Below, in pieces: positions 18,727 through 64,000 of a DNA stretch of 64,000 nt. The notes below the pieces were generated by a model. The model was not told the DNA's origin and made no database searches. It worked only from the letters and a program-made list of their open reading frames with translations. Each line of letters opens with the position of its first letter. Position 1 is the stretch's first letter. Location: sequence record JX128259. One strand, given 5' to 3'. A program made the translations under genes and the position numbers. Source of the DNA: Escherichia phage ECML-134.

Positions 18727-18756
18727 ACTATACCATAGTCTTGTCAGCTTGTAAAC
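18727..18756 (-). promoter_or_regulatory. early sigma70-type promoter
   Basis: gtaaac at 18751-18756; -10 TATAGT from 18727-18732; 18 bp spacer. Confidence 0.55.
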
Positions 18757-20183
18757 TAAAATTTTAATTCATTCGCCAAAGCATCTAACTGAGCTCGAGT
18801 GGATTCATTTCTTTGATAGCGATTCTGCTCAGCCTGAATCTGTTGTGAACCTGCTACTTCGTTCACTTCAGTTGGAGTAGAATCTTGTTCAATTTCTACC
18901 CATTTCTGATTTCCTTTTTGAACACCCATCAAAAACTTATTCCACTTATTCTTATCACCATATCGTGATTTGATTTGCTTAATGAGTTGTTGTTCAGCAG
19001 CTGCTAGCTCCTCGGTTTCAATGACCGCAAGCATAAAATCGGCTGTTGCTGGAAGACCGGCAGATTCTGCAATATCGCTCATGTTAACATCGGAAGAGTC
19101 CCAAGCTTGTTTACCAACCTGTGCTGCAGTCCAAAGAACAGTTTCGGTTTCAACAGCCAAAGCACGCAATTCCTCTGCAATAGCTTTAACAGTTGTGTAA
19201 CTATTTTCTGAATAAACTCTGATGCGGCAAGATTTACAAATACCTAGATAGTCGACAATAATGATTGTTGGAACAAAATTCTTTTTGAGCTTCAATTCGT
19301 TTAAAAGTGATCGAAATGTATTAGCATCTGCTCCGCCAGTAGGATACTGTTTAACGATTAAACGACCGAGAGTAGATTTCTCACGCCATTTTTCCATTTT
19401 TCCTTTATACTCAGCGTAAGAAATATGCCCATCATCAATGTCATCAAGAGAAACATCAAGCATATTAGCATCAATACGTTTAGCACAGACTTCTTCTGCC
19501 ATTTCCATGGAAATGTAAAGAACATTATGTCCGAGCTGCAAATAATCTGCTGCCAATGAACACAATCCTAATGACTTACCAACGTTAACGCCAGCCATTA
19601 AAACGTTCAGTGTTCCAGTCTCAGCTCCGCCTTTAGTAATTTTGTTTAGAATTCTGAGTTTAAATGGAACCTTACGAGCTTTATTCATATAAGATAGCCA
19701 ACGTGCTTCGTAGTCATCCATCCAATCATGACCAACGTAGCTATCAAATGAAATAGATAATGCTTGGCGCATGATGTCAGGAATAGCACCAACGTCCGGC
19801 ATTTTCTTATTTCGTTTTTCCGGAGGAAGCTCAGCATTAGTTTGAATTTCGATTATTTTAGACGTAGCATTAAACATCGCCCTTTGCTGAACATATTTTT
19901 CTGTTTCTTTTATTAACCAACTGTGGTCTTCTGGAGAATCAGCTAGTTTTGAAATAAGTGTTTTTACACCAGAATATTCTGTTTCAGTAAATGAACTATT
20001 TTCTAATGCAACATTTAACGCATTAATAGATGGAACGCTATGATACTCATTAACATGAGATTTAATTAATTTGAATGTATTTTTAGCTGGACCACTTTCA
20101 AAATATTCTGAATCCATATATGGCCAAACTTTTGAAAAATAAGCTTGATCAAATATGAGATGAGAAAGAATAATTTCTACCAC
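18756..20183 (-). CDS. 41: replicative DNA helicase
   Basis: 475-aa ORF, T4 gp41 length; DnaB-family P-loop GVNVGKS. Confidence 0.9.
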   Translation of the reverse strand: MVEIILSHLIFDQAYFSKVWPYMDSEYFESGPAKNTFKLIKSHVNEYHSVPSINALNVALENSSFTETEYSGVKTLISKLADSPEDHSWLIKETEKYVQQRAMFNATSKIIEIQTNAELPPEKRNKKMPDVGAIPDIMRQALSISFDSYVGHDWMDDYEARWLSYMNKARKVPFKLRILNKITKGGAETGTLNVLMAGVNVGKSLGLCSLAADYLQLGHNVLYISMEMAEEVCAKRIDANMLDVSLDDIDDGHISYAEYKGKMEKWREKSTLGRLIVKQYPTGGADANTFRSLLNELKLKKNFVPTIIIVDYLGICKSCRIRVYSENSYTTVKAIAEELRALAVETETVLWTAAQVGKQAWDSSDVNMSDIAESAGLPATADFMLAVIETEELAAAEQQLIKQIKSRYGDKNKWNKFLMGVQKGNQKWVEIEQDSTPTEVNEVAGSQQIQAEQNRYQRNESTRAQLDALANELKF

Positions 20184-55978: not shown

Positions 55979-56191
55979 TCATTTTTGTCCTGTATTTACT
56001 TTATGCCGATGCACGGCCTTAACTTTATCAAGGTATTTTTCAAAATTTCGCAATCTAGTATAGTCTGCCGGAGATTGGTTGAGTGATACTTCTCGACGCA
56101 AAGCTGAAATGATATTTCCAACTTCCCTACGAATTTCATCTAATTGAAGAACAGTAAGATTGCGAAGTTGCTTTTCAGTTAATTGTAGCAT
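55979..56191 (-). CDS. small hypothetical protein
   Basis: 70-aa basic ORF. Confidence 0.5.
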
Positions 56192-56233
56192 ATATACCCC
56201 TTTAGTTAGATAAACCTATTTATAACTTTTGCA

Positions 56234-56815
56234 CTAACCGAGCTTTTTAGTTAATTCATTCCAATGTTTTCTACACAAAGAAACATAAATTTCATCACCA
56301 ATACAGATTTGATTACCTTCTTTAACTGGTGTTCCATCTTCCATTAATCGAGCTGTCATAATCGCTTTTTTGCCACAATGACAAACTGCTTTTAGTTCAA
56401 TAAGTTTATCTGCAATCGCCAAAAGTTCTTTAGAACCTTCAAATAATTTTCCAGCGAAATCAGTCCTTAGTCCATAAGCCATAACAGGAACATTATATGT
56501 ATCAACAATTCGGCTTAATTGATGCACCTGTTTAGTTTTTAAAAACTGGGCTTCATCTACAAATACACAATGAATATCTTTTTGTGCTTCAGCCCATTTA
56601 TAGAACTCAAAAATATCCATATCATCCGTAATAATATTCGCTTCCTGCTTAATTCCAATGCGAGAAACGACTTCACAGACAGAATCACGAGTATCAATAG
56701 CAGGCTTAAGAACTAATACACCCATTCCGCGTTCTTTATAATTATGTGCAGCAGTCAAAAGAGAAGCAGATTTTCCAGCATTCATTGCTGCGTAAGTAAA
56801 AATTAAACTCGCCAT
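56234..56815 (-). CDS. tk: thymidine kinase
   Basis: 193-aa ORF; P-loop AAMNAGKS; C-terminal zinc cysteines. Confidence 0.85.
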   Translation of the reverse strand: MASLIFTYAAMNAGKSASLLTAAHNYKERGMGVLVLKPAIDTRDSVCEVVSRIGIKQEANIITDDMDIFEFYKWAEAQKDIHCVFVDEAQFLKTKQVHQLSRIVDTYNVPVMAYGLRTDFAGKLFEGSKELLAIADKLIELKAVCHCGKKAIMTARLMEDGTPVKEGNQICIGDEIYVSLCRKHWNELTKKLG

Positions 56816-56824
56816 ATCACCTTC

Positions 56825-57010
56825 TTAAAGCGTATTCACATAAGCTATTAATTCGTTTTCTTTCTTATCAAACCGATCAGCAAATTCTTCTTGCTGATCG
56901 GGAGATAGCGGGCCATATTCATCATAAAAGGTGTTTGCTTCTGTATGCTCATCTAGAAGTTCATGGATAAGCTCAAACAATTTATCTTTTTGTTCTTTAC
57001 TCAGACTCAT
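56825..57010 (-). CDS. small acidic protein
   Basis: 61-aa ORF; start overlaps upstream stop. Confidence 0.5.
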   Translation of the reverse strand: MSLSKEQKDKLFELIHELLDEHTEANTFYDEYGPLSPDQQEEFADRFDKKENELIAYVNTL

Positions 57011-57180
57011 ATATTAATTTCCAGGAGTTTTAAAATAATTCTCTTTTGCTTAAATATTTCCATAGTTAAATGATCAGTATCTTTTTGACCAATTCCAATA
57101 GCAAAACCTTTATTAGCAGCGAGTTCAATTAAATTATCAAGTTCACGTGACACTTCATATTGTAACTCAGAACTATTCAT
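57010..57180 (-). CDS. small hypothetical protein
   Basis: 57-aa ORF translated by hand (MNSSELQYEVSRELDNLIELAANKGF...); ATGA overlap at both ends. Confidence 0.4.
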
Positions 57181-57404
57181 TTCGGTTTACCTTCTTTAAC
57201 GAAATCTGGATAAGGATAAAATCCCGAATAAAATCCTTCACCTTTATGATTGATGCATCCTTTATTAGAACAATAGCACCAATAATCGAAATCACAAGCC
57301 ATTTCATCATTACATAAAGCAAAAACAACCGGCCATTTACACTTTTCACAATGGGCATTTTTAAGAATACTAGTTTGGCTCATAACCATGTAACCTTTAA
57401 ACAA
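57177..57404 (-). CDS. small Cys-rich protein
   Basis: 75-aa ORF with 9 cysteines. Confidence 0.5.
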   Translation of the reverse strand: MFKGYMVMSQTSILKNAHCEKCKWPVVFALCNDEMACDFDYWCYCSNKGCINHKGEGFYSGFYPYPDFVKEGKPK

Positions 57405-57607
57405 TATTCTTCTACATGTTGTTTACGACCTTTCTTATCAATAAAGGTATATTCAACGAATGTTCCAATATAGTCTTTATCTACATCATGTGGACTATTA
57501 ATTGGACATTTAGTACGGCAAATGCGTTCCCATTGACGAATAATTTCCACTTTGTTTTTAGGATCAAACGGATGCGGGTAATGTATATTCATAATAACGG
57601 TTCCCAA
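57380..57607 (-). CDS. small hypothetical protein
   Basis: 75-aa ORF. Confidence 0.5.
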   Translation of the reverse strand: MGTVIMNIHYPHPFDPKNKVEIIRQWERICRTKCPINSPHDVDKDYIGTFVEYTFIDKKGRKQHVEEYCLKVTWL

Positions 57608-58056
57608 TCAACAATCACAATTTCTAATTTAGAGGAATATGTATCTAAAATATCTTTAATAATATCCCAGTTCCCTTTACCTATGCCTGCACCAATCCTA
57701 GGCATATAGATTGTAGGTTTAATCAGTTTATTTTCGCCAAACTCATTTAATTCTAACATACAATTCATTAAAGCGGAATACTCAAAATTTGGCCCTGGTT
57801 GAAATTGAGTATAAAGATTAAAGCAGTAAGCTTTATGAGTCCTAAAGTACTTTTCATAGACTGAGTAAGAACCGAGTTTAGTTACATCACCCCATTCAGT
57901 CTGTAATTTATCAACTTCTAGAATTTTAGGGAAAGCTTTAGTTAATTGACCTGCGACTCCAGCTTTCATCGCGTGAAAACAATTGCATCCATGCGCAATA
58001 TTTTTACCTTCAGCGAAAAGGGCGACAATATCGCCCTTGATATATTTTACAATCAT
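57589..58056 (-). CDS. macro-like domain protein (putative ADP-ribose binding/processing)
   Basis: 155-aa ORF; IAHGCNCFHAMKAGVAGQL and PRIGAGIGKG resemble macro-domain nucleotide and phosphate loops; by eye only. Confidence 0.5.
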   Translation of the reverse strand: MIVKYIKGDIVALFAEGKNIAHGCNCFHAMKAGVAGQLTKAFPKILEVDKLQTEWGDVTKLGSYSVYEKYFRTHKAYCFNLYTQFQPGPNFEYSALMNCMLELNEFGENKLIKPTIYMPRIGAGIGKGNWDIIKDILDTYSSKLEIVIVDWEPLL

Positions 58057-58400
58057 CTAGTACTCAATCCTCGATTATAAGAATCTACCAAACGGTCAAC
58101 CATTGAATGACAAGCGGCTTTATCTTTCTCCTCCGCAACTGAACATTCTAAGGTATTCCACTTTTTAGCATATCGTTTTAATAATGTATCGTTTTTGTAT
58201 CTGCTTGATTTATCTCTTTCTCCGTCTTTATATGCATATATTAATTTCTGTGCAAATTCAGCTTGGCATGCTTTATTTTTCCCACAATAATCTGCCGCAG
58301 TGCGGTTTACATATTCTCTAATTTCAGTATATGATGTATCTGCTGACGCAGAAGCAGAAAATGAAATTAATCCTATACATAAAACCAAAATTTTAGTCAT
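58053..58400 (-). CDS. vs: Vs-like periplasmic protein
   Basis: 115-aa ORF with signal peptide; T4 vs length; position after tk. Confidence 0.55.
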   Translation of the reverse strand: MTKILVLCIGLISFSASASADTSYTEIREYVNRTAADYCGKNKACQAEFAQKLIYAYKDGERDKSSRYKNDTLLKRYAKKWNTLECSVAEEKDKAACHSMVDRLVDSYNRGLSTR

Positions 58401-58938
58401 TTACTATTTCCAAAAGTTTATTATTTTTAAGGTAATTAGCCTTTTCTAGGACTTCAGAAGCATATTTAGAACCAGCTTTAACATTCCATCCCGAATTATA
58501 AGAGGATATTGCTTTTCTTATATCGCCCTTATGTATATTTAACCAATAAGAAAGTTCAATGTACGCCCAGGAAGCTGAATTGGATCGTTTATTCAACATT
58601 CTTTTTATTTCAGCATCGGTCATATTATAACCAAGTTCCTTAACTCTTGCTCGCATAGTAGGCAAATAATTTTGGAACATTCCGTAGGCGTGATGCTTTG
58701 GTTTAGATTTTAAATTAACTCCGCCAGAGCTTTCTTGCCATAAAATAGCAGCCATTATATGACCTAATCCGCTCTTGTGGATATTTTTGTGTGTTTTATA
58801 TTTTCCATCCTTAGAAAATTGTTCCCCGAATTGATACGCGTAACGCATGTTATCGAGTTGGACATTACTGAAAGTATGCTCGGAGCTATGTGCCATCATT
58901 GAAATGGCCAATAGACCAGCGAGTAGTGCTTTTCTCAT
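58393..58938 (-). CDS. periplasmic lytic transglycosylase-like protein
   Basis: 181-aa ORF; signal peptide; AILWQESSGGVN resembles the catalytic ES motif of lytic transglycosylases. Confidence 0.55.
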   Translation of the reverse strand: MRKALLAGLLAISMMAHSSEHTFSNVQLDNMRYAYQFGEQFSKDGKYKTHKNIHKSGLGHIMAAILWQESSGGVNLKSKPKHHAYGMFQNYLPTMRARVKELGYNMTDAEIKRMLNKRSNSASWAYIELSYWLNIHKGDIRKAISSYNSGWNVKAGSKYASEVLEKANYLKNNKLLEIVND

Positions 58939-58945
58939 GCTTACC

Positions 58946-59407
58946 TCATTGAGTTTTAATTACTGCTTTAGAAGCCTTTCCTGGTAAACGACGACTGTTA
59001 ATAATTGCCATCCTACATTGGAGTGACGGGTCTTTGAACTTCTCATTAGGTTTACAAACTGTAAATCCAAGCCAAAGATTTCCATCTGTGATTTCTAAAC
59101 GTCCAGGACGATATTCAATCCCATCAATAAAATCCTCATCGATATCAGGACGCGGAGGCATACTCAGGAATTCATTAACTTCTAAAACATGGTCTTTTAT
59201 TTTATGGAATAATTCAAAAACATATGTCTCATCAATCTCCCGTTGAATTGCGCGATCAAGAAGATGCTGAGAATATTTTAGATGAAACGATGAGACTCCT
59301 GCTGCTTTTGATGCCTCACGAATCTCATTGTTAATTTGACGAAACTCCGACTCAAAGTGACGACGAAGCTTATTTCGACGGATAAAAACTTCTGTATTGA
59401 TAGTCAT
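58946..59407 (-). CDS. regB: RegB site-specific RNA endonuclease
   Basis: 153-aa ORF, T4 RegB length; sequence recalled as similar. Confidence 0.75.
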   Translation of the reverse strand: MTINTEVFIRRNKLRRHFESEFRQINNEIREASKAAGVSSFHLKYSQHLLDRAIQREIDETYVFELFHKIKDHVLEVNEFLSMPPRPDIDEDFIDGIEYRPGRLEITDGNLWLGFTVCKPNEKFKDPSLQCRMAIINSRRLPGKASKAVIKTQ

Positions 59408-59434
59408 GTTATTCTCCTCTTAACTGATAGAAAA

Positions 59435-59464
59435 ATTATACCACAGTTAAGAGGAAAAGTAAAC
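59435..59464 (-). promoter_or_regulatory. early sigma70-type promoter
   Basis: gtaaac at 59459-59464; -10 TATAAT; 18 bp spacer. Confidence 0.55.
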
Positions 59465-59466
59465 AG

Positions 59467-59787
59467 TTATTCTTTAAATCTAATCAATTTATTCATAGAC
59501 TTTGAAACTTCTGCACGAACCTCATGTAGATTTTTGAGCTGTTCAAGACGCTGCGTATAGTAAGCAATTTCATCTTCTTCGAGACAGTCCTGTGAATCTT
59601 CTTTAAGATAACGTGCATAGTCCTGGAAAGCGTTACGGACTACTTCCTGGAAGTCATCAAGACTTTGAATTTTCTTAGGAGCAACAGATACACGACGAGG
59701 GGCAGTATAATACTCATAACCAAACCCTGCGCTTAATTGAGCCATTAGTATTTTTCCTCTGGTTGGAACACTGCACGACAAGCCCAC
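59467..59787 (-). CDS. hypothetical protein
   Basis: 106-aa ORF. Confidence 0.55.
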
Positions 59788-60047
59788 ATACTGGCTTCTT
59801 TGAGTTTCGTTTTAGCAATAGTTAACTGATCGAGGCTTTCAGCATAATTCTTCGCGAATTCACAGTCTTCACAATTATCTAGTGCTTCCCAGAATTCATC
59901 GTATAAAGCGTCAAAGATAAGTCCTAAACGAATTTCAGCGTCTTTGATAGCATTCACTTTACCGATTTTCTCTTCAGTATGCGGCTTATAACCTTTAATG
60001 TCTTCAATCATATTTGACTTCCTCACCAGTACATAAATCATATTCAA
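59745..60047 (-). CDS. hypothetical protein
   Basis: 100-aa ORF. Confidence 0.55.
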
Positions 60048-60225
60048 CTAAACGAATAGGTTCATGAATGCCATATCCCTGAACAGAAATTTCTGTCGTA
60101 GGATAAATTCCATCAATATCGCCCATATTCCACGCTTCATTAAATTGCTGTTCGCCTGAATTACTAAACCACTCGGCGAAAGCATTTAGCACATCTTCAG
60201 AACCTTCAATAATTATCTTTGCCAT
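60004..60225 (-). CDS. small acidic protein
   Basis: 73-aa ORF. Confidence 0.5.
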   Translation of the reverse strand: MAKIIIEGSEDVLNAFAEWFSNSGEQQFNEAWNMGDIDGIYPTTEISVQGYGIHEPIRLVEYDLCTGEEVKYD

Positions 60226-60587
60226 TACAAACTCTCGGTAAAGGTACGAGCGATAACGTCGCGCTGCTGTTCCGGAGTCAGAGAGTTAAAGCGAACTGCA
60301 TAACCGGATACACGGATGGTCAGCTGCGGATATTTTTCCGGATGCTTAACTGCATCTTCCAGAGTTTCACGACGCAGAACGTTAACGTTCAGGTGTTGAC
60401 CACCTTCAATTTTAACTGTAGGCTGTGGCTCAATTTCAATTTCACGGGCATGCAAACCATAGAAAATTTCTGGGTCTACAAAAGAGTCCTCTTTAAAGGT
60501 TTTAGAGACAATAATTCGTGCTTGAATACCATCTTCAAAATAAATAGTACCTTTATGTGTGCCTTCAAGAATTTGATATGCTTTCAT
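60225..60587 (-). CDS. autonomous glycyl radical cofactor, GrcA/YfiD-like
   Basis: 120-aa ORF ending [32 protein letters not shown]; glycyl radical motif RVSGY; 3' half visibly more GC-rich than surroundings. Confidence 0.8.
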
Positions 60588-60594
60588 ATAAACC

Positions 60595-60921
60595 TCAATT
60601 AGAAAATAAATTTATCCAAGATTGTTCTTTAATTAAAAACGGCTCAGAATCATATGCCATTAAACTTTGCGTAATTAATCCTTTAAAAGGTCCATCAATA
60701 AATTCCATGGTAAAATATGGAATTTTATTCATTAGCCGTGCATTAGGAGCAGTGCACAAAACTCTGCATCCTTTGAATACGCCTTTTTGTAATTTGTATT
60801 GCTTAGGATAAAATTCGCTCAAAATGTTATTGTTTGCTAAAATTTCAAAATGATTCACCAATTTATTTTTAATAGTTTTTGGCGAAAAATAAAGATATTC
60901 GAAAAGCTGAGTGTCTGTCAT
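60595..60921 (-). CDS. hypothetical protein
   Basis: ORF track gives 60595-60972; start set to Met-Met pair overlapping the upstream stop (TGATG). Confidence 0.5.
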
Positions 60922-61460
60922 CATTGCATTCCGATTACGAAAAACTGCGGACGAGTAATACCACCAATGCAACAGTTAATATTACAGCAGTGGTGTACAG
61001 TGTCAATATGGACACTATAAATCTTATCCATATCAGGAGATTTGACAGGCTCATCAATTATATACAAAATTCGCGAAAGCGATAAACCTCTGAACTTGCT
61101 TCCTTTATTACCAATAAAACTGCGTACAGAATCAGTAAATAAACGAAAACGTATATCATCATTAGAATAACGCGAAAATTCCTTTTTAATGTTATTTGCA
61201 GAAATTTTAGCGTAAGCTGAAGTATTAGAAAGAACAATAACTGTTCCACCGTCATACAACCAATTAGCGGCAAAATTAGTTACTGCAGTTGATTTACCGG
61301 ATTGACGTCCACCATCTAGTCGAAGTGTGCAATACTGCTTAAGTAAGTCTTCAAATGGCGGGATATATTCGTTTTTACAAATTTCTTCTACTCTAGCGTC
61401 AGAATGGTGTGTAAAAGCATTCATCAGGGATAGATAAGGACCAGTTAAAAATGTTCTCAT
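60921..61460 (-). CDS. P-loop ATPase at the position where T4 carries denV
   Basis: ORF track gives 60921-61508; start moved to Met 17 because the first 16 codons overlap the 34 nt intergenic repeat; Walker A GGRQSGKST, Walker B ILYIIDEP. Confidence 0.55.
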   Translation of the reverse strand: MRTFLTGPYLSLMNAFTHHSDARVEEICKNEYIPPFEDLLKQYCTLRLDGGRQSGKSTAVTNFAANWLYDGGTVIVLSNTSAYAKISANNIKKEFSRYSNDDIRFRLFTDSVRSFIGNKGSKFRGLSLSRILYIIDEPVKSPDMDKIYSVHIDTVHHCCNINCCIGGITRPQFFVIGMQ

Positions 61461-61494
61461 TTTATTCTCTCTAAATTTGGGCCATTCCATGGCG

Positions 61495-61528
61495 CATGAA
61501 TTGTCCATTTCTGTATTTACCCATTACC
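61495..61528. repeat. 34 nt intergenic repeat, copy A
   Basis: catgaattgtccatttctgtatttacccattacc; one mismatch to copy at 62143-62176. Confidence 0.7.
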
Positions 61529-61613
61529 GCACTTGGGCTCGACCTTATTACAGGTTGGCGGGAATCCCTCACAGAATCATGAGGTCCAGCTTGTTCCCAT
61601 ATTTCTTATTTGC

Positions 61614-62087
61614 TTATTTGAATGATTTAACGTACTGAATAGAGCCTTTACTATTCACGAAAGCGATTTTACCATTTTTATTATACATGGTAGCAGTACG
61701 CTGATAGCCATAAGTTTGCTTACCAGATTGATAACCAACTAATGCAAAATTATCTTCACCCATTTTATTCTGTTTAGCACGAATACGTTCATGACCATGT
61801 GCCATAAGAACTTTAGCATCACCAGTTGCAATGGATCTACGAGTTTTTTCATCTTCAACTGTATTAACAAAATCGTCAAATGAATCAAATTTAGCATGTG
61901 ATTTATTATACAGTTTTCCATCTACTGCATAATTATATCCTTGTACATCCATCTCAACTTCTGTACCATCATCTAATACAGCAGTAATTTTCTGTCCTTT
62001 TTTAAATTTCAAAAGATCAGTAAAAGATTCAGCAATAATTTGAGAATTAATAGCTGCTTCAGTAATAAATTCTTGATATGTTTTCAT
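61614..62087 (-). CDS. internal head protein, IPII-like
   Basis: 157-aa ORF beginning MKTYQEFITEA, the capsid targeting sequence of T4 internal proteins; body differs in length from recalled T4 IPII. Confidence 0.6.
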   Translation of the reverse strand: MKTYQEFITEAAINSQIIAESFTDLLKFKKGQKITAVLDDGTEVEMDVQGYNYAVDGKLYNKSHAKFDSFDDFVNTVEDEKTRRSIATGDAKVLMAHGHERIRAKQNKMGEDNFALVGYQSGKQTYGYQRTATMYNKNGKIAFVNSKGSIQYVKSFK

Positions 62088-62128
62088 GTATATCCTTTAA
62101 ATGTAAATAGTGTTATTATTTAAGTTTT

Positions 62129-62176
62129 GGACAATTCACACACATGAATTGTCCATTTCTATATTTACCCATTACC
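62129..62176. repeat. 34 nt intergenic repeat copy B with 10 bp perfect inverted repeat
   Basis: ggacaattca-cacaca-tgaattgtcc (62129-62154) overlapping repeat 62143-62176. Confidence 0.7.
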
Positions 62177-62195
62177 AGGTTCGAACTCGGCTTTA

Positions 62196-62777
62196 TTAAG
62201 AATTACCGCGGGCTGCATTAGCAACAGCGTAAGCGTACTGAACATTAGCGTCTTTAAACGTACCTTTAGAGGTATCTAGTTCTGCCTTAAAGCCGCCTTT
62301 AGTCATAACCTCGGCGAATTCTTTACGGAAAGCCATTGCATCAAGGCTTCTCCATGACGATTTGTGCTTGGCGAATTCAAGACCAGCGTAGTTGACAGCC
62401 TTAGCTAATTTATTATCAATAACCCATTTACCAGCTTTAGGCACAAACACCGGGCCTTTCTGTTTAGAGAATAGTTTTAAATTCCAGCGACGAAGGTCAC
62501 CGTCAGCTTTAACAAAAGCTGCGTCCAAGTTACTAGCAACAACATCTTGAATATGGCCAAATTTAAGCCCATCAACTTCAATATTTAAATCTGTACGCCA
62601 GCGAAGTCCTTCCCAAGCGAAAGCTTTAAAGTCAGAAGCTTTTGTAGCTAAGTATCGTTCAATAGGGGCTGTTTTAGGGTCAAAGCCGTTTCCCGATCGG
62701 TAGGTCCACTCATCTTTATTAATGCCTTTGGCCTTTTCCACAGAAGCTTCAGCGATAAATTCTTTATACGTTTTCAT
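62196..62777 (-). CDS. ipIII: internal head protein IPIII
   Basis: 193-aa ORF beginning MKTYKEFIAEA; T4 IPIII length. Confidence 0.7.
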   Translation of the reverse strand: MKTYKEFIAEASVEKAKGINKDEWTYRSGNGFDPKTAPIERYLATKASDFKAFAWEGLRWRTDLNIEVDGLKFGHIQDVVASNLDAAFVKADGDLRRWNLKLFSKQKGPVFVPKAGKWVIDNKLAKAVNYAGLEFAKHKSSWRSLDAMAFRKEFAEVMTKGGFKAELDTSKGTFKDANVQYAYAVANAARGNS

Positions 62778-62814
62778 GTGTTTCCTTTAAATATTTTAAT
62801 TAGTAACTGTGAAT

Positions 62815-62844
62815 ATACTATCACAGTTTTAGGAGAAAGTAAAC
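62815..62844 (-). promoter_or_regulatory. early sigma70-type promoter
   Basis: gtaaac at 62839-62844; -10 TAGTAT. Confidence 0.5.
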
Positions 62845-62848
62845 AACT

Positions 62849-63379
<531 letters not shown>

Positions 63380-63835
63380 TTAAAAGAGGCTGTTCATTAT
63401 TCGGTAAAGTGAAGGACCCATCACATATTGCCACTGAGTACGAGGAATAAGAGCAAAAGCGTCCATCTCTGGAATCATAACGCCATCTTTATTTTCAAAA
63501 TAAGACTTGCAGCGGCAATTTCTAAACATCTCATGCTCTACTGGAATCGTATAATAAAATAACTGTAGGTCTTTATTACTAGAATATTTAAATACACCTA
63601 GGTCTTCTAGAAGGTCTGGATTATAATTGCTAAAACCAGTCTCTTCTAAACATTCTCTTCGTGCTGCATCTAATGCGCTTAAATCAGAATTTTCTACACG
63701 ACCTTTTGGAATATCCCAACGATGTGCCATCGTTCCAGGCTTACGAGAACCAGTAACCCGACCCATAAATAAATCTTTATCTTCTGTCATAAAGATAATA
63801 CCAGCTGATAGTGTTTTCATTTTAATTTCCTGCAT
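63380..63835 (-). CDS. nudE: Nudix hydrolase
   Basis: 151-aa ORF; Nudix box GRVENSDLSALDAARRECLEETG; true start may be Met 6 at 63820 (ATGA overlap with upstream stop). Confidence 0.75.
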   Translation of the reverse strand: MQEIKMKTLSAGIIFMTEDKDLFMGRVTGSRKPGTMAHRWDIPKGRVENSDLSALDAARRECLEETGFSNYNPDLLEDLGVFKYSSNKDLQLFYYTIPVEHEMFRNCRCKSYFENKDGVMIPEMDAFALIPRTQWQYVMGPSLYRIMNSLF

Positions 63836-64000
63836 TCAGTGATAAAGTTATTTAAATTTTGAGCATATTTCTTTTCATCAAAAATCTTTTGCTGTCTGCG
63901 TAAACGCCATGGCATTTCAATGAACATGCGCCATATTCCTGATAATACTGCTGCTGTAAAAATATTAACAAGTATAGTTAAAAGAACCCAATCTCCTATT
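63820..64000 (-). CDS. partial ORF, C-terminal end of a hydrophobic protein continuing past the window
   Basis: open frame read by hand from 64000 down to stop at 63817-63819. Confidence 0.45.

Follow-up and report, generated by a model that had tools for sequence, protein, structure and literature searches.

How does a gene of a lytic phage come to have two halves that look as though they had been taken from different genomes? The question is raised by a small gene on the minus strand of Escherichia phage ECML-134, at positions 60225-60587 of the 64,000-nucleotide stretch analysed here (sequence record JX128259; hereafter the window). It encodes, in 363 nucleotides (nt) including the stop codon, a GrcA-like autonomous glycyl radical cofactor of 120 amino acids (aa), the counterpart of Y06I, the product of T4 vs.6. 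With a probability of about 0.9, we take it to be the Tequatrovirus ortholog of T4 vs.6, with its 3' half replaced by host DNA and with the function of a spare part for pyruvate formate-lyase (PFL).

The window belongs to Tequatrovirus, the T4 group: over positions 56000-64000 it is 97.9% identical, at equal coordinates, to Escherichia phage vB_EcoM_SCS4. The product of the open reading frame (ORF) shares 119/120 residues (99.2%) with T4 Vs.6 (NP_049730, annotated GrcA). Both genes lie between vs.7 and vs.5, have equal length and carry an E. coli-type tract; residue 73 is histidine in T4 and arginine in the window. The original prediction, made from the letters alone, had named a T4 homolog called Y06I, and this is that very gene. 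The protein matches Pfam Gly_radical PF01228 with 66.8 bits (cutoff 22.2), and its residues 22-120 match the nuclear magnetic resonance structure of E. coli YfiD/GrcA (PDB 6OWR, E = 8.6e-42); the C-terminus of PFL is also matched, with E = 5e-26. It has the size of a stand-alone GrcA/YfiD protein (~120-130 aa) and the C-terminal PFL-type glycyl-radical domain with the motif RVSGY. Within this motif Gly95 (codon GGT, 60303-60305, minus strand) is the predicted site of the radical, aligned to residue 102 of GrcA and to PflB, whose own radical glycine is G734 (PMC8683613).

The 3' half is where the gene meets the host. In codon and dot alignments, 172 consecutive nucleotides (60238-60409, minus strand; gene nt 179-350) equal E. 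coli B grcA at every base, and codons 61-116 show zero differences. The tract encodes YfiD residues 68-123, nearly the whole structured glycyl-radical domain. At the protein level, the last 60 residues of Vs.6 are those of E. coli GrcA 68-127 (60/60, including IRVSGY), so that the near-identity stated in the original prediction is in fact complete. In DNA the identity to host grcA is 97.8% over 185 nt and 100% over 172 nt, and the exact run with E. coli B covers 170 of 183 tail nt. A blastn search found gene nt 179-363 at 97.3-97.8% identity in 5,426/5,426 complete E. coli genomes; the 5' half of vs.6 had no blastn match in any of them. The tract is also the sole megablast match of the whole 64-kb window to these genomes.

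Composition follows the same boundary. The G+C content (GC) of 60225-60409 is 0.486, against 0.343 in the 5' half and a window mean of 0.344 (standard deviation 0.039), and only 0.056% of all 185-nt windows in the 64 kb reach this value. GC at third codon positions (GC3) rises from 0.20 in codons 1-60 to 0.45 in codons 61-120, next to 0.43 in the E. coli tail; the segment is thus composed like its donor and not like its recipient. The tract uses codons such as CTG, CCG, CGT and CGC; upstream of it, CTT/TTG, CCA/CCT and CGA take their place. A tract richer in G+C with ctg, ccg and cgc codons had been predicted at about 60240 to 60430; computation bears out the enrichment and the codon usage, and the limits were close to the true ones.

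One other 185-nt stretch of the window is as GC-rich, at 18983-19184, inside an ORF for a 475-aa gene 41-like helicase (18756-20183, minus strand). It has no DNA match among the E. coli genomes, and its GC probably reflects amino-acid content (an Ala/Gly-rich motif) and not transfer.

The 5' half (60410-60587, minus strand) has a different ancestry. Upstream of codon 61 the gene differs from E. coli grcA at ~1.6 positions per codon, with insertions and deletions (indels) in addition. Several other T-even groups, which we take to be Karamvirus (CC31 type), Slopekvirus, Pseudotevenvirus and Jiaodavirus, also have a full-length 120-aa ortholog, the assignment of some IMG/VR loci being provisional. 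At informative sites the ratio of phage CC31 to E. coli states is 62:6 in codons 1-60 and 2:34 in codons 61-120 (Fisher p = 7e-19): the nearest relative changes significantly along the gene, and on the 3' side it is an identifiable host. Since the 5' half groups with phages and the 3' half with E. coli, a part was replaced in an existing gene. Homology to the GrcA region involved in binding and activation is still detectable in this half, the T-even N-terminal profile aligning with the host GrcA N-terminal profile in hhalign with a probability of 93.7% (E = 1.8e-7, 48 columns). What we see is thus a long-standing phage homolog of grcA in which host DNA has taken the place of the 3' half. A fairly recent capture from an enterobacterial host had been proposed: the host origin stands, and can be narrowed to Escherichia, whereas capture of a new gene does not.

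We nevertheless considered that the whole of grcA was captured recently from E. coli, its disordered N-terminal half then diverging fast while selection kept the C-terminal half. The N-terminal half of GrcA is indeed intrinsically disordered and evolves faster (PMC8683613); between E. coli and Klebsiella, nonsynonymous divergence (pN) is 0.062 in the head and 0.030 in the tail. Such a history is nonetheless highly improbable. It would have to place 56 codons with zero synonymous changes directly beside a 5' half with ~1.6 differences per codon, indels and a GC3 of 0.20, a half that sides 62:6 with phage CC31 and has full-length orthologs in several T-even genera. Moreover, selection on a protein cannot freeze synonymous sites, and hosts with an identical protein tail differ at 9-25% of bases.

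We calibrated the last point with the grcA genes of 80 further species. In many Enterobacterales the tail protein is the same at 60/60 positions, an extreme conservation, so one might suppose that convergent constraint on the protein, on codon bias or on an RNA element produced the match with no transfer at all. However, across hosts with this very 60-aa tail, DNA identity to the phage is no more than 75-91% (median host 84%), for instance 91.3% in Trabulsiella, 90.7% in Citrobacter amalonaticus, 87.4% in Serratia and 83.6% in Erwinia, and the longest exact run in other host genera is at most 41 nt. In the tail, the synonymous divergence (dS) of E. coli is 1.02 from Salmonella and 0.56 from Klebsiella. 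With zero changes over ~41 synonymous sites while hosts diverge in this way, constraint cannot explain the match. Other T-even genera infecting E. coli or Shigella lack the tract, with tails at 77-84% (Slopekvirus phT4A 80.9%, Krischvirus SFHK24 77%, loci assigned to the Pseudotevenvirus RB16/RB43 type ~83%), and identities among phage tails are bimodal. Constraint without transfer is thus hardly tenable. The nucleotide alignment to host grcA that had been suggested as a check gives 100% over 172 nt, far above the 75-91% expected from constraint, and the suggested windowed GC and codon-usage analysis gives a significantly elevated GC.

The same identities, 97-100% for Escherichia and at most 91% for other genera, point to Escherichia itself as the donor of the tract. 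The paralogous candidates pflB and tdcE were rejected as donors, at 76-80% DNA identity to the phage tract. In the opposite direction, none of the 5,426 E. coli genomes contains the phage-type terminal variants (best identity 97.8%), and so there is no sign of a return from phage to host.

How widespread and how old is the tract? The E. coli tail matches 1,509 GenBank phage records in a bimodal manner: 637 records lie at or above 95%, 8 between 90 and 95%, and none of the others exceeds 87%. The upper class includes Tequatrovirus (T4, the window, OES_C-2, TB004, sb4) and Mosigvirus (SF, ATK48, FL18), and the 5' junction is common to all tracts examined in the two genera. Among 80 IMG/VR phage loci a host-level tract occurs in those of Tequatrovirus and Mosigvirus (L003-L009) and in one of Jiaodavirus (L029) only, the others lying at 70-84%. 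The distribution also bears on an artefact, in which contaminating host reads would have produced a chimeric consensus. We know of nothing specific in its favour, and the tract, its junction and the phage-specific terminal variants are found in the T4 reference and in 637 GenBank records from two genera; its probability is negligible.

Between the window and Mosigvirus SF, dS is 0.12 in the tract, 0.49 in the 5' half and 1.2-2.4 in vs.7, vs.5 and vs.4. The tract is so much less diverged than its neighbours that it must be far younger than the split of Tequatrovirus and Mosigvirus. Its core differences from E. coli are scattered and private, whereas the 5' half and the downstream gene are genus-specific right up to the tract.

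Two alleles deserve a separate mention. OES_C-2 (L168, 701-1057) has the most host-like tail seen, 184/185 identical to E. coli B grcA including nt 357/358; its vs.6 is 357 nt long, with a two-codon deletion in the 5' half. In vB_EcoM_Nami, another Tequatrovirus (L170, 521-883), the tail differs from E. coli at 13 positions, with the replacements N67H and I91S, the latter directly preceding the RVSGY motif; it may be a decaying or low-quality copy.

In another reading, the tract is repeatedly re-converted by E. coli grcA in present-day Tequatrovirus and Mosigvirus, a continuing concerted evolution that keeps the domain matched to the host. Several patterns agree with it. Core alleles form a star-like pattern, each with 0-4 differences of its own and hardly any in common, in contrast to the structured flanks; between genera, the tract dS is 4-20 times below that of adjacent sequence. 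Both T and C, common E. coli states (E. coli B / K-12), occur at nt 219 among phages, alleles differ in how the states of the last four codons are combined, and OES_C-2 is nearly the E. coli sequence. Yet nt 219 is also G in one phage, and the site may be simply mutable. Inside Tequatrovirus, divergence of the tract is not reduced relative to its surroundings (dS 0.095 against 0.10-0.35 in the flanks). Of the core variants private to SF, TB004 and FL18, none is present in the E. coli genomes (0/5,426), which marks them as phage mutations that arose after acquisition and were not erased. Tequatroviruses isolated on Hafnia, Salmonella or Citrobacter, moreover, retain the E. coli allele. We judge continuing re-conversion unlikely. 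Two related proposals were also dismissed: several E. coli donor alleles as the source of the variants of SF, TB004 and FL18, given their absence from the E. coli genomes, and ongoing homogenisation within Tequatrovirus, which is unsupported with tract dS equal to flank dS.

Replacement of the 3' half from a host is not confined to E. coli. In the Klebsiella phages of Jiaodavirus (15882-6-3 and KPV15, the latter being L029) the 5' half of the gene is orthologous to that of the window (72% in nt). The first 150 nt of its tail, however, are 96.7-97.3% identical to a Klebsiella grcA allele (L173); the next genus reaches ~91%, E. coli ~85%. The 5' junction is placed as in the window, and the last ~30 nt are phage-specific. 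Informative sites run 61:11 and then 7:40 (p = 2e-14), and GC3 is 0.58 in the tail and 0.25 in the head. The mosaic thus recurs in separate phage lineages with different hosts; on these alignments, host DNA has replaced the segment independently on at least two occasions, each time from another host.

Traces in other lineages are fainter. The tails of two loci presumably of Slopekvirus (KP15 type; L020/L021) read LLDAVEH, the Klebsiella/Enterobacter type, and those of five loci that we assign to Pseudotevenvirus (RB16/RB43 type; L015-L019) read LEDAVKH, the E. coli type. Their DNA is 81-84% identical to any sampled host, with a tail GC3 of 0.42-0.45 above a head GC3 of 0.25-0.33, compatible with older host tracts that have drifted toward phage composition. 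One member (L024) of a metagenomic phage group from human-associated samples in IMG/VR shares an exact run of 53-56 nt with grcA of Haemophilus parainfluenzae (L155/L156), and its sister phages differ at 4-6 sites within it; this may hint at a third, small host-derived patch. One further locus (L032), 91% identical to Yersinia with a host-like N-terminal half too, looks like a bacterial grcA on a viral-labelled contig and was left out of the analysis.

What process could have produced such tracts? The anatomy is suggestive. In YfiD, residues 61-127 form the structured domain, and the disordered residues 1-60 aid binding and activation (PMC8683613). The replaced part of vs.6 is almost exactly this structured domain, and the untouched part is the disordered N-terminal region. 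Only two blocks, those for [10 protein letters not shown] and RDVIARTFT, are conserved in nucleotide sequence between the phage and host genes, and it is there that the tract appears to begin and end, as homologous or homeologous exchange predicts. Recombination in T4 is very active and also acts on plasmids that carry homologous inserts. We therefore picture, from the position of the edges, codons 61 to ~116-120 of the phage gene being swapped during infection for the matching segment of the chromosomal E. coli grcA, by homologous (homeologous) recombination or gene conversion. The exchange would be bounded by the two conserved blocks, the only spots similar enough for a crossover.

The 3' edge is less tidy. 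The last four codons, T-E-S-L, and TAA (60225-60239, minus strand, from the alignments) contain the ribosome-binding region of vs.5 and its overlapping start, TAATG. Each of the four codons carries one synonymous difference (phage/E. coli ACC/ACT, GAG/GAA, AGT/AGC and TTG/CTG), and these are the sole differences from E. coli B grcA within codons 61-120. Were they spread at random over synonymous sites, they would cluster in this way with a chance of roughly 4e-5 by our own estimate. At nt 351 and 354 the window carries phage-specific synonymous states, and T4 those of E. coli. The terminal sites are reshuffled among phage alleles, with all four haplotypes present at nt 357/358. The change from GAA to GAG creates a GAG 8 nt ahead of the vs.5 ATG. 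T4 is the sole allele lacking the G at nt 354 that forms this GAG.

These terminal differences are the first of several points that weigh against our interpretation. A simple single-tract model does not explain their clustering; selection on vs.5 translation or variable 3' ends of the tract are possible causes. Secondly, the tract may have entered each genus separately, or once with later recombination between phages; the G at nt 354 and the T at nt 357, which the two genera share, speak for a common origin, or else for selection on the overlapping vs.5 ribosome-binding site. In Jiaodavirus the nearest sampled Klebsiella allele is 97%, not 100%, identical to the core. The argument for recombination as the mechanism comes entirely from tract anatomy. 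Finally, Vs.6 misses the equivalog cutoff of NCBIfam TIGR04365 (spare_glycyl), scoring 153.3 against 170 bits over residues 20-120, where E. coli GrcA itself scores 234 bits; the shortfall is due to the diverged N-terminal half and not to the radical domain.

The gene and its biochemical role are already known, at textbook level for T4. As PMC8683613 presents it, citing Wagner 2001, Y06I and YfiD are the two validated spare parts for PFL, and T4 Y06I, which receives its radical from the PFL-activating enzyme, rescues O2-cleaved PFL in vitro (PMC8683613, citing Wagner et al. 2001). From this literature on an ortholog one residue away, the product in the window is predicted to restore O2-cleaved PFL as well. 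The host PFL-activating enzyme would install the radical on Gly95, and the C-terminal domain would insert into E. coli PFL cleaved by oxygen at Gly734 and restore its activity, with the N-terminal half assisting in binding. Early in infection T4 shuts down the expression of host genes, which is presumably why the phage has a copy of its own. Made from the phage genome, the protein could keep up the PFL-dependent flux from pyruvate to acetyl-CoA and formate, and with it the supply of ATP, in the microaerobic or anaerobic gut. As a tentative extension, and one that we would not bet on, T-even phages may repeatedly overwrite the glycyl-radical domain with the allele of the current enterobacterial host (E. 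coli for Tequatrovirus and Mosigvirus, Klebsiella for Jiaodavirus), by recombination with the host chromosome during lytic infection, favoured by its match to the host's PFL and activase.

The window encodes a second glycyl-radical protein besides Vs.6: a 609-aa ORF on the minus strand, ending near 40.69 kb, closes with ...RRTCGYLGNP..., the glycyl-radical motif of NrdD-type anaerobic ribonucleotide reductase. An ORF of this type fits a phage adapted to anaerobic growth.

With E. coli grcA, vs.6 shares the 60 C-terminal residues, the RVSGY loop, the 172 identical nucleotides and a detectably homologous N-terminal half; this half, however, is 7 residues shorter in vs.6 and ~25-29% identical, and vs.6 is presumably expressed from a phage operon whereas grcA has its own host promoter. 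The C-terminal glycyl-radical domain of PflB and TdcE has the same fold element and motif, and in PFL it is this part for which the spare part substitutes, but it differs from the phage tract in DNA (~76-80% identity). Other phage homologs of GrcA (in Karam-, Slopek-, Pseudoteven- and Krischvirus, T5-like phages and Aeromonas phages) are likewise small genes with the C-terminal motif and are widespread. Unlike vs.6, they show no recent host tract: tail identity to the best sampled host is 70-84%, the background level, and tail GC3 is lower, for example 0.28 in CC31. In T5-like siphoviruses (L045-L071, e.g. L049) the homolog has a 62-residue N-terminal half in most loci and a tail ~70-76% identical to hosts in DNA; GenBank labels it variously as pyruvate formate-lyase, 2-ketobutyrate formate-lyase, acetyltransferase or ribonucleotide reductase subunit.

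The closest precedent is intragenic recombination between host and phage in cyanophage psbA and psbD (Zeidner 2005; Sullivan 2006, PMC1484495). There, too, a host-derived metabolic gene of T4-like phages is a mosaic of phage-type and host-type sequence, first noticed through patchy G+C. For vs.6, by contrast, one can name the donor species and place the tract and both its edges to the base; the host is an enteric bacterium, the product a repair cofactor, and transfer is seen from host to phage only. In the literature that we searched, only papers on function turned up, and none reports the vs.6 mosaic at the nucleotide level; an earlier remark elsewhere is possible.

The phenomenon is thus of a known kind and will not surprise specialists, although the example is very clean: a base-resolved replacement from host to phage in a metabolic gene of a strictly lytic phage, in which the donor, the edges and a second event can be identified. 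If T-even phages do overwrite the domain repeatedly with host alleles, this would be a natural case of a host chromosome recombining with a T4-type genome despite the degradation of host DNA and the modification of cytosine, in a setting tractable for measuring the process. As a natural marker, vs.6 could inform on how often T-even and host DNA recombine, how far the homeologous kind of recombination can reach and in what way acquired DNA moves toward phage composition. It also serves as a caution for host prediction and contamination filters: host-identical DNA in phage genomes is not always an artefact.

The locus around vs.6 keeps the gene order of T4: tk.4, vs, vs.1, regB, vs.3, vs.4, vs.5, vs.6, vs.7, vs.8, ..., ipIII, e, nudE. 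Within this tight array, the upstream gene vs.7 (60598-60924, minus strand; 109 aa) was located by tblastn with T4 Vs.7 (99% identity) and PHROG 2049, and forms an operon-like array with vs.6. A putative Shine-Dalgarno-like GAGG (60593-60596, minus strand), read from the sequence 5 nt upstream of the vs.6 ATG, overlaps the vs.7 stop codon. A scan for promoters and terminators gave no excess over shuffled sequences. Downstream, vs.5 (60004-60225, minus strand; 73 aa) is supported by the ORF list, a full-length match to PHROG 1986 and tblastn with T4 Vs.5; its ATG and the vs.6 stop codon share the A at 60225. The 73-aa ORF matches the PHROG from end to end, while the annotated 58-aa Vs.5 of T4 (L003, 6382-6558) aligns in two frames, so the copy in the T4 reference seems frameshifted or truncated.

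Further upstream, vs.8 appears to be split (60924-61572). Residues 1-32 of T4 Vs.8 match at 61572-61477 and residues 26-219 at 61508-60924 in a different frame, which appears to reflect a frameshift, a sequencing error or a pseudogene. Between vs.8 and ipIII (61508-62196) tblastn found no match for denV and ipII in the window, unlike in T4. In their place stands a 157-aa ORF (61614-62087, minus strand) whose full length is matched by PHROG 3155, 'internal virion protein', and whose start, MKTYQEF..., is like that of IPIII.

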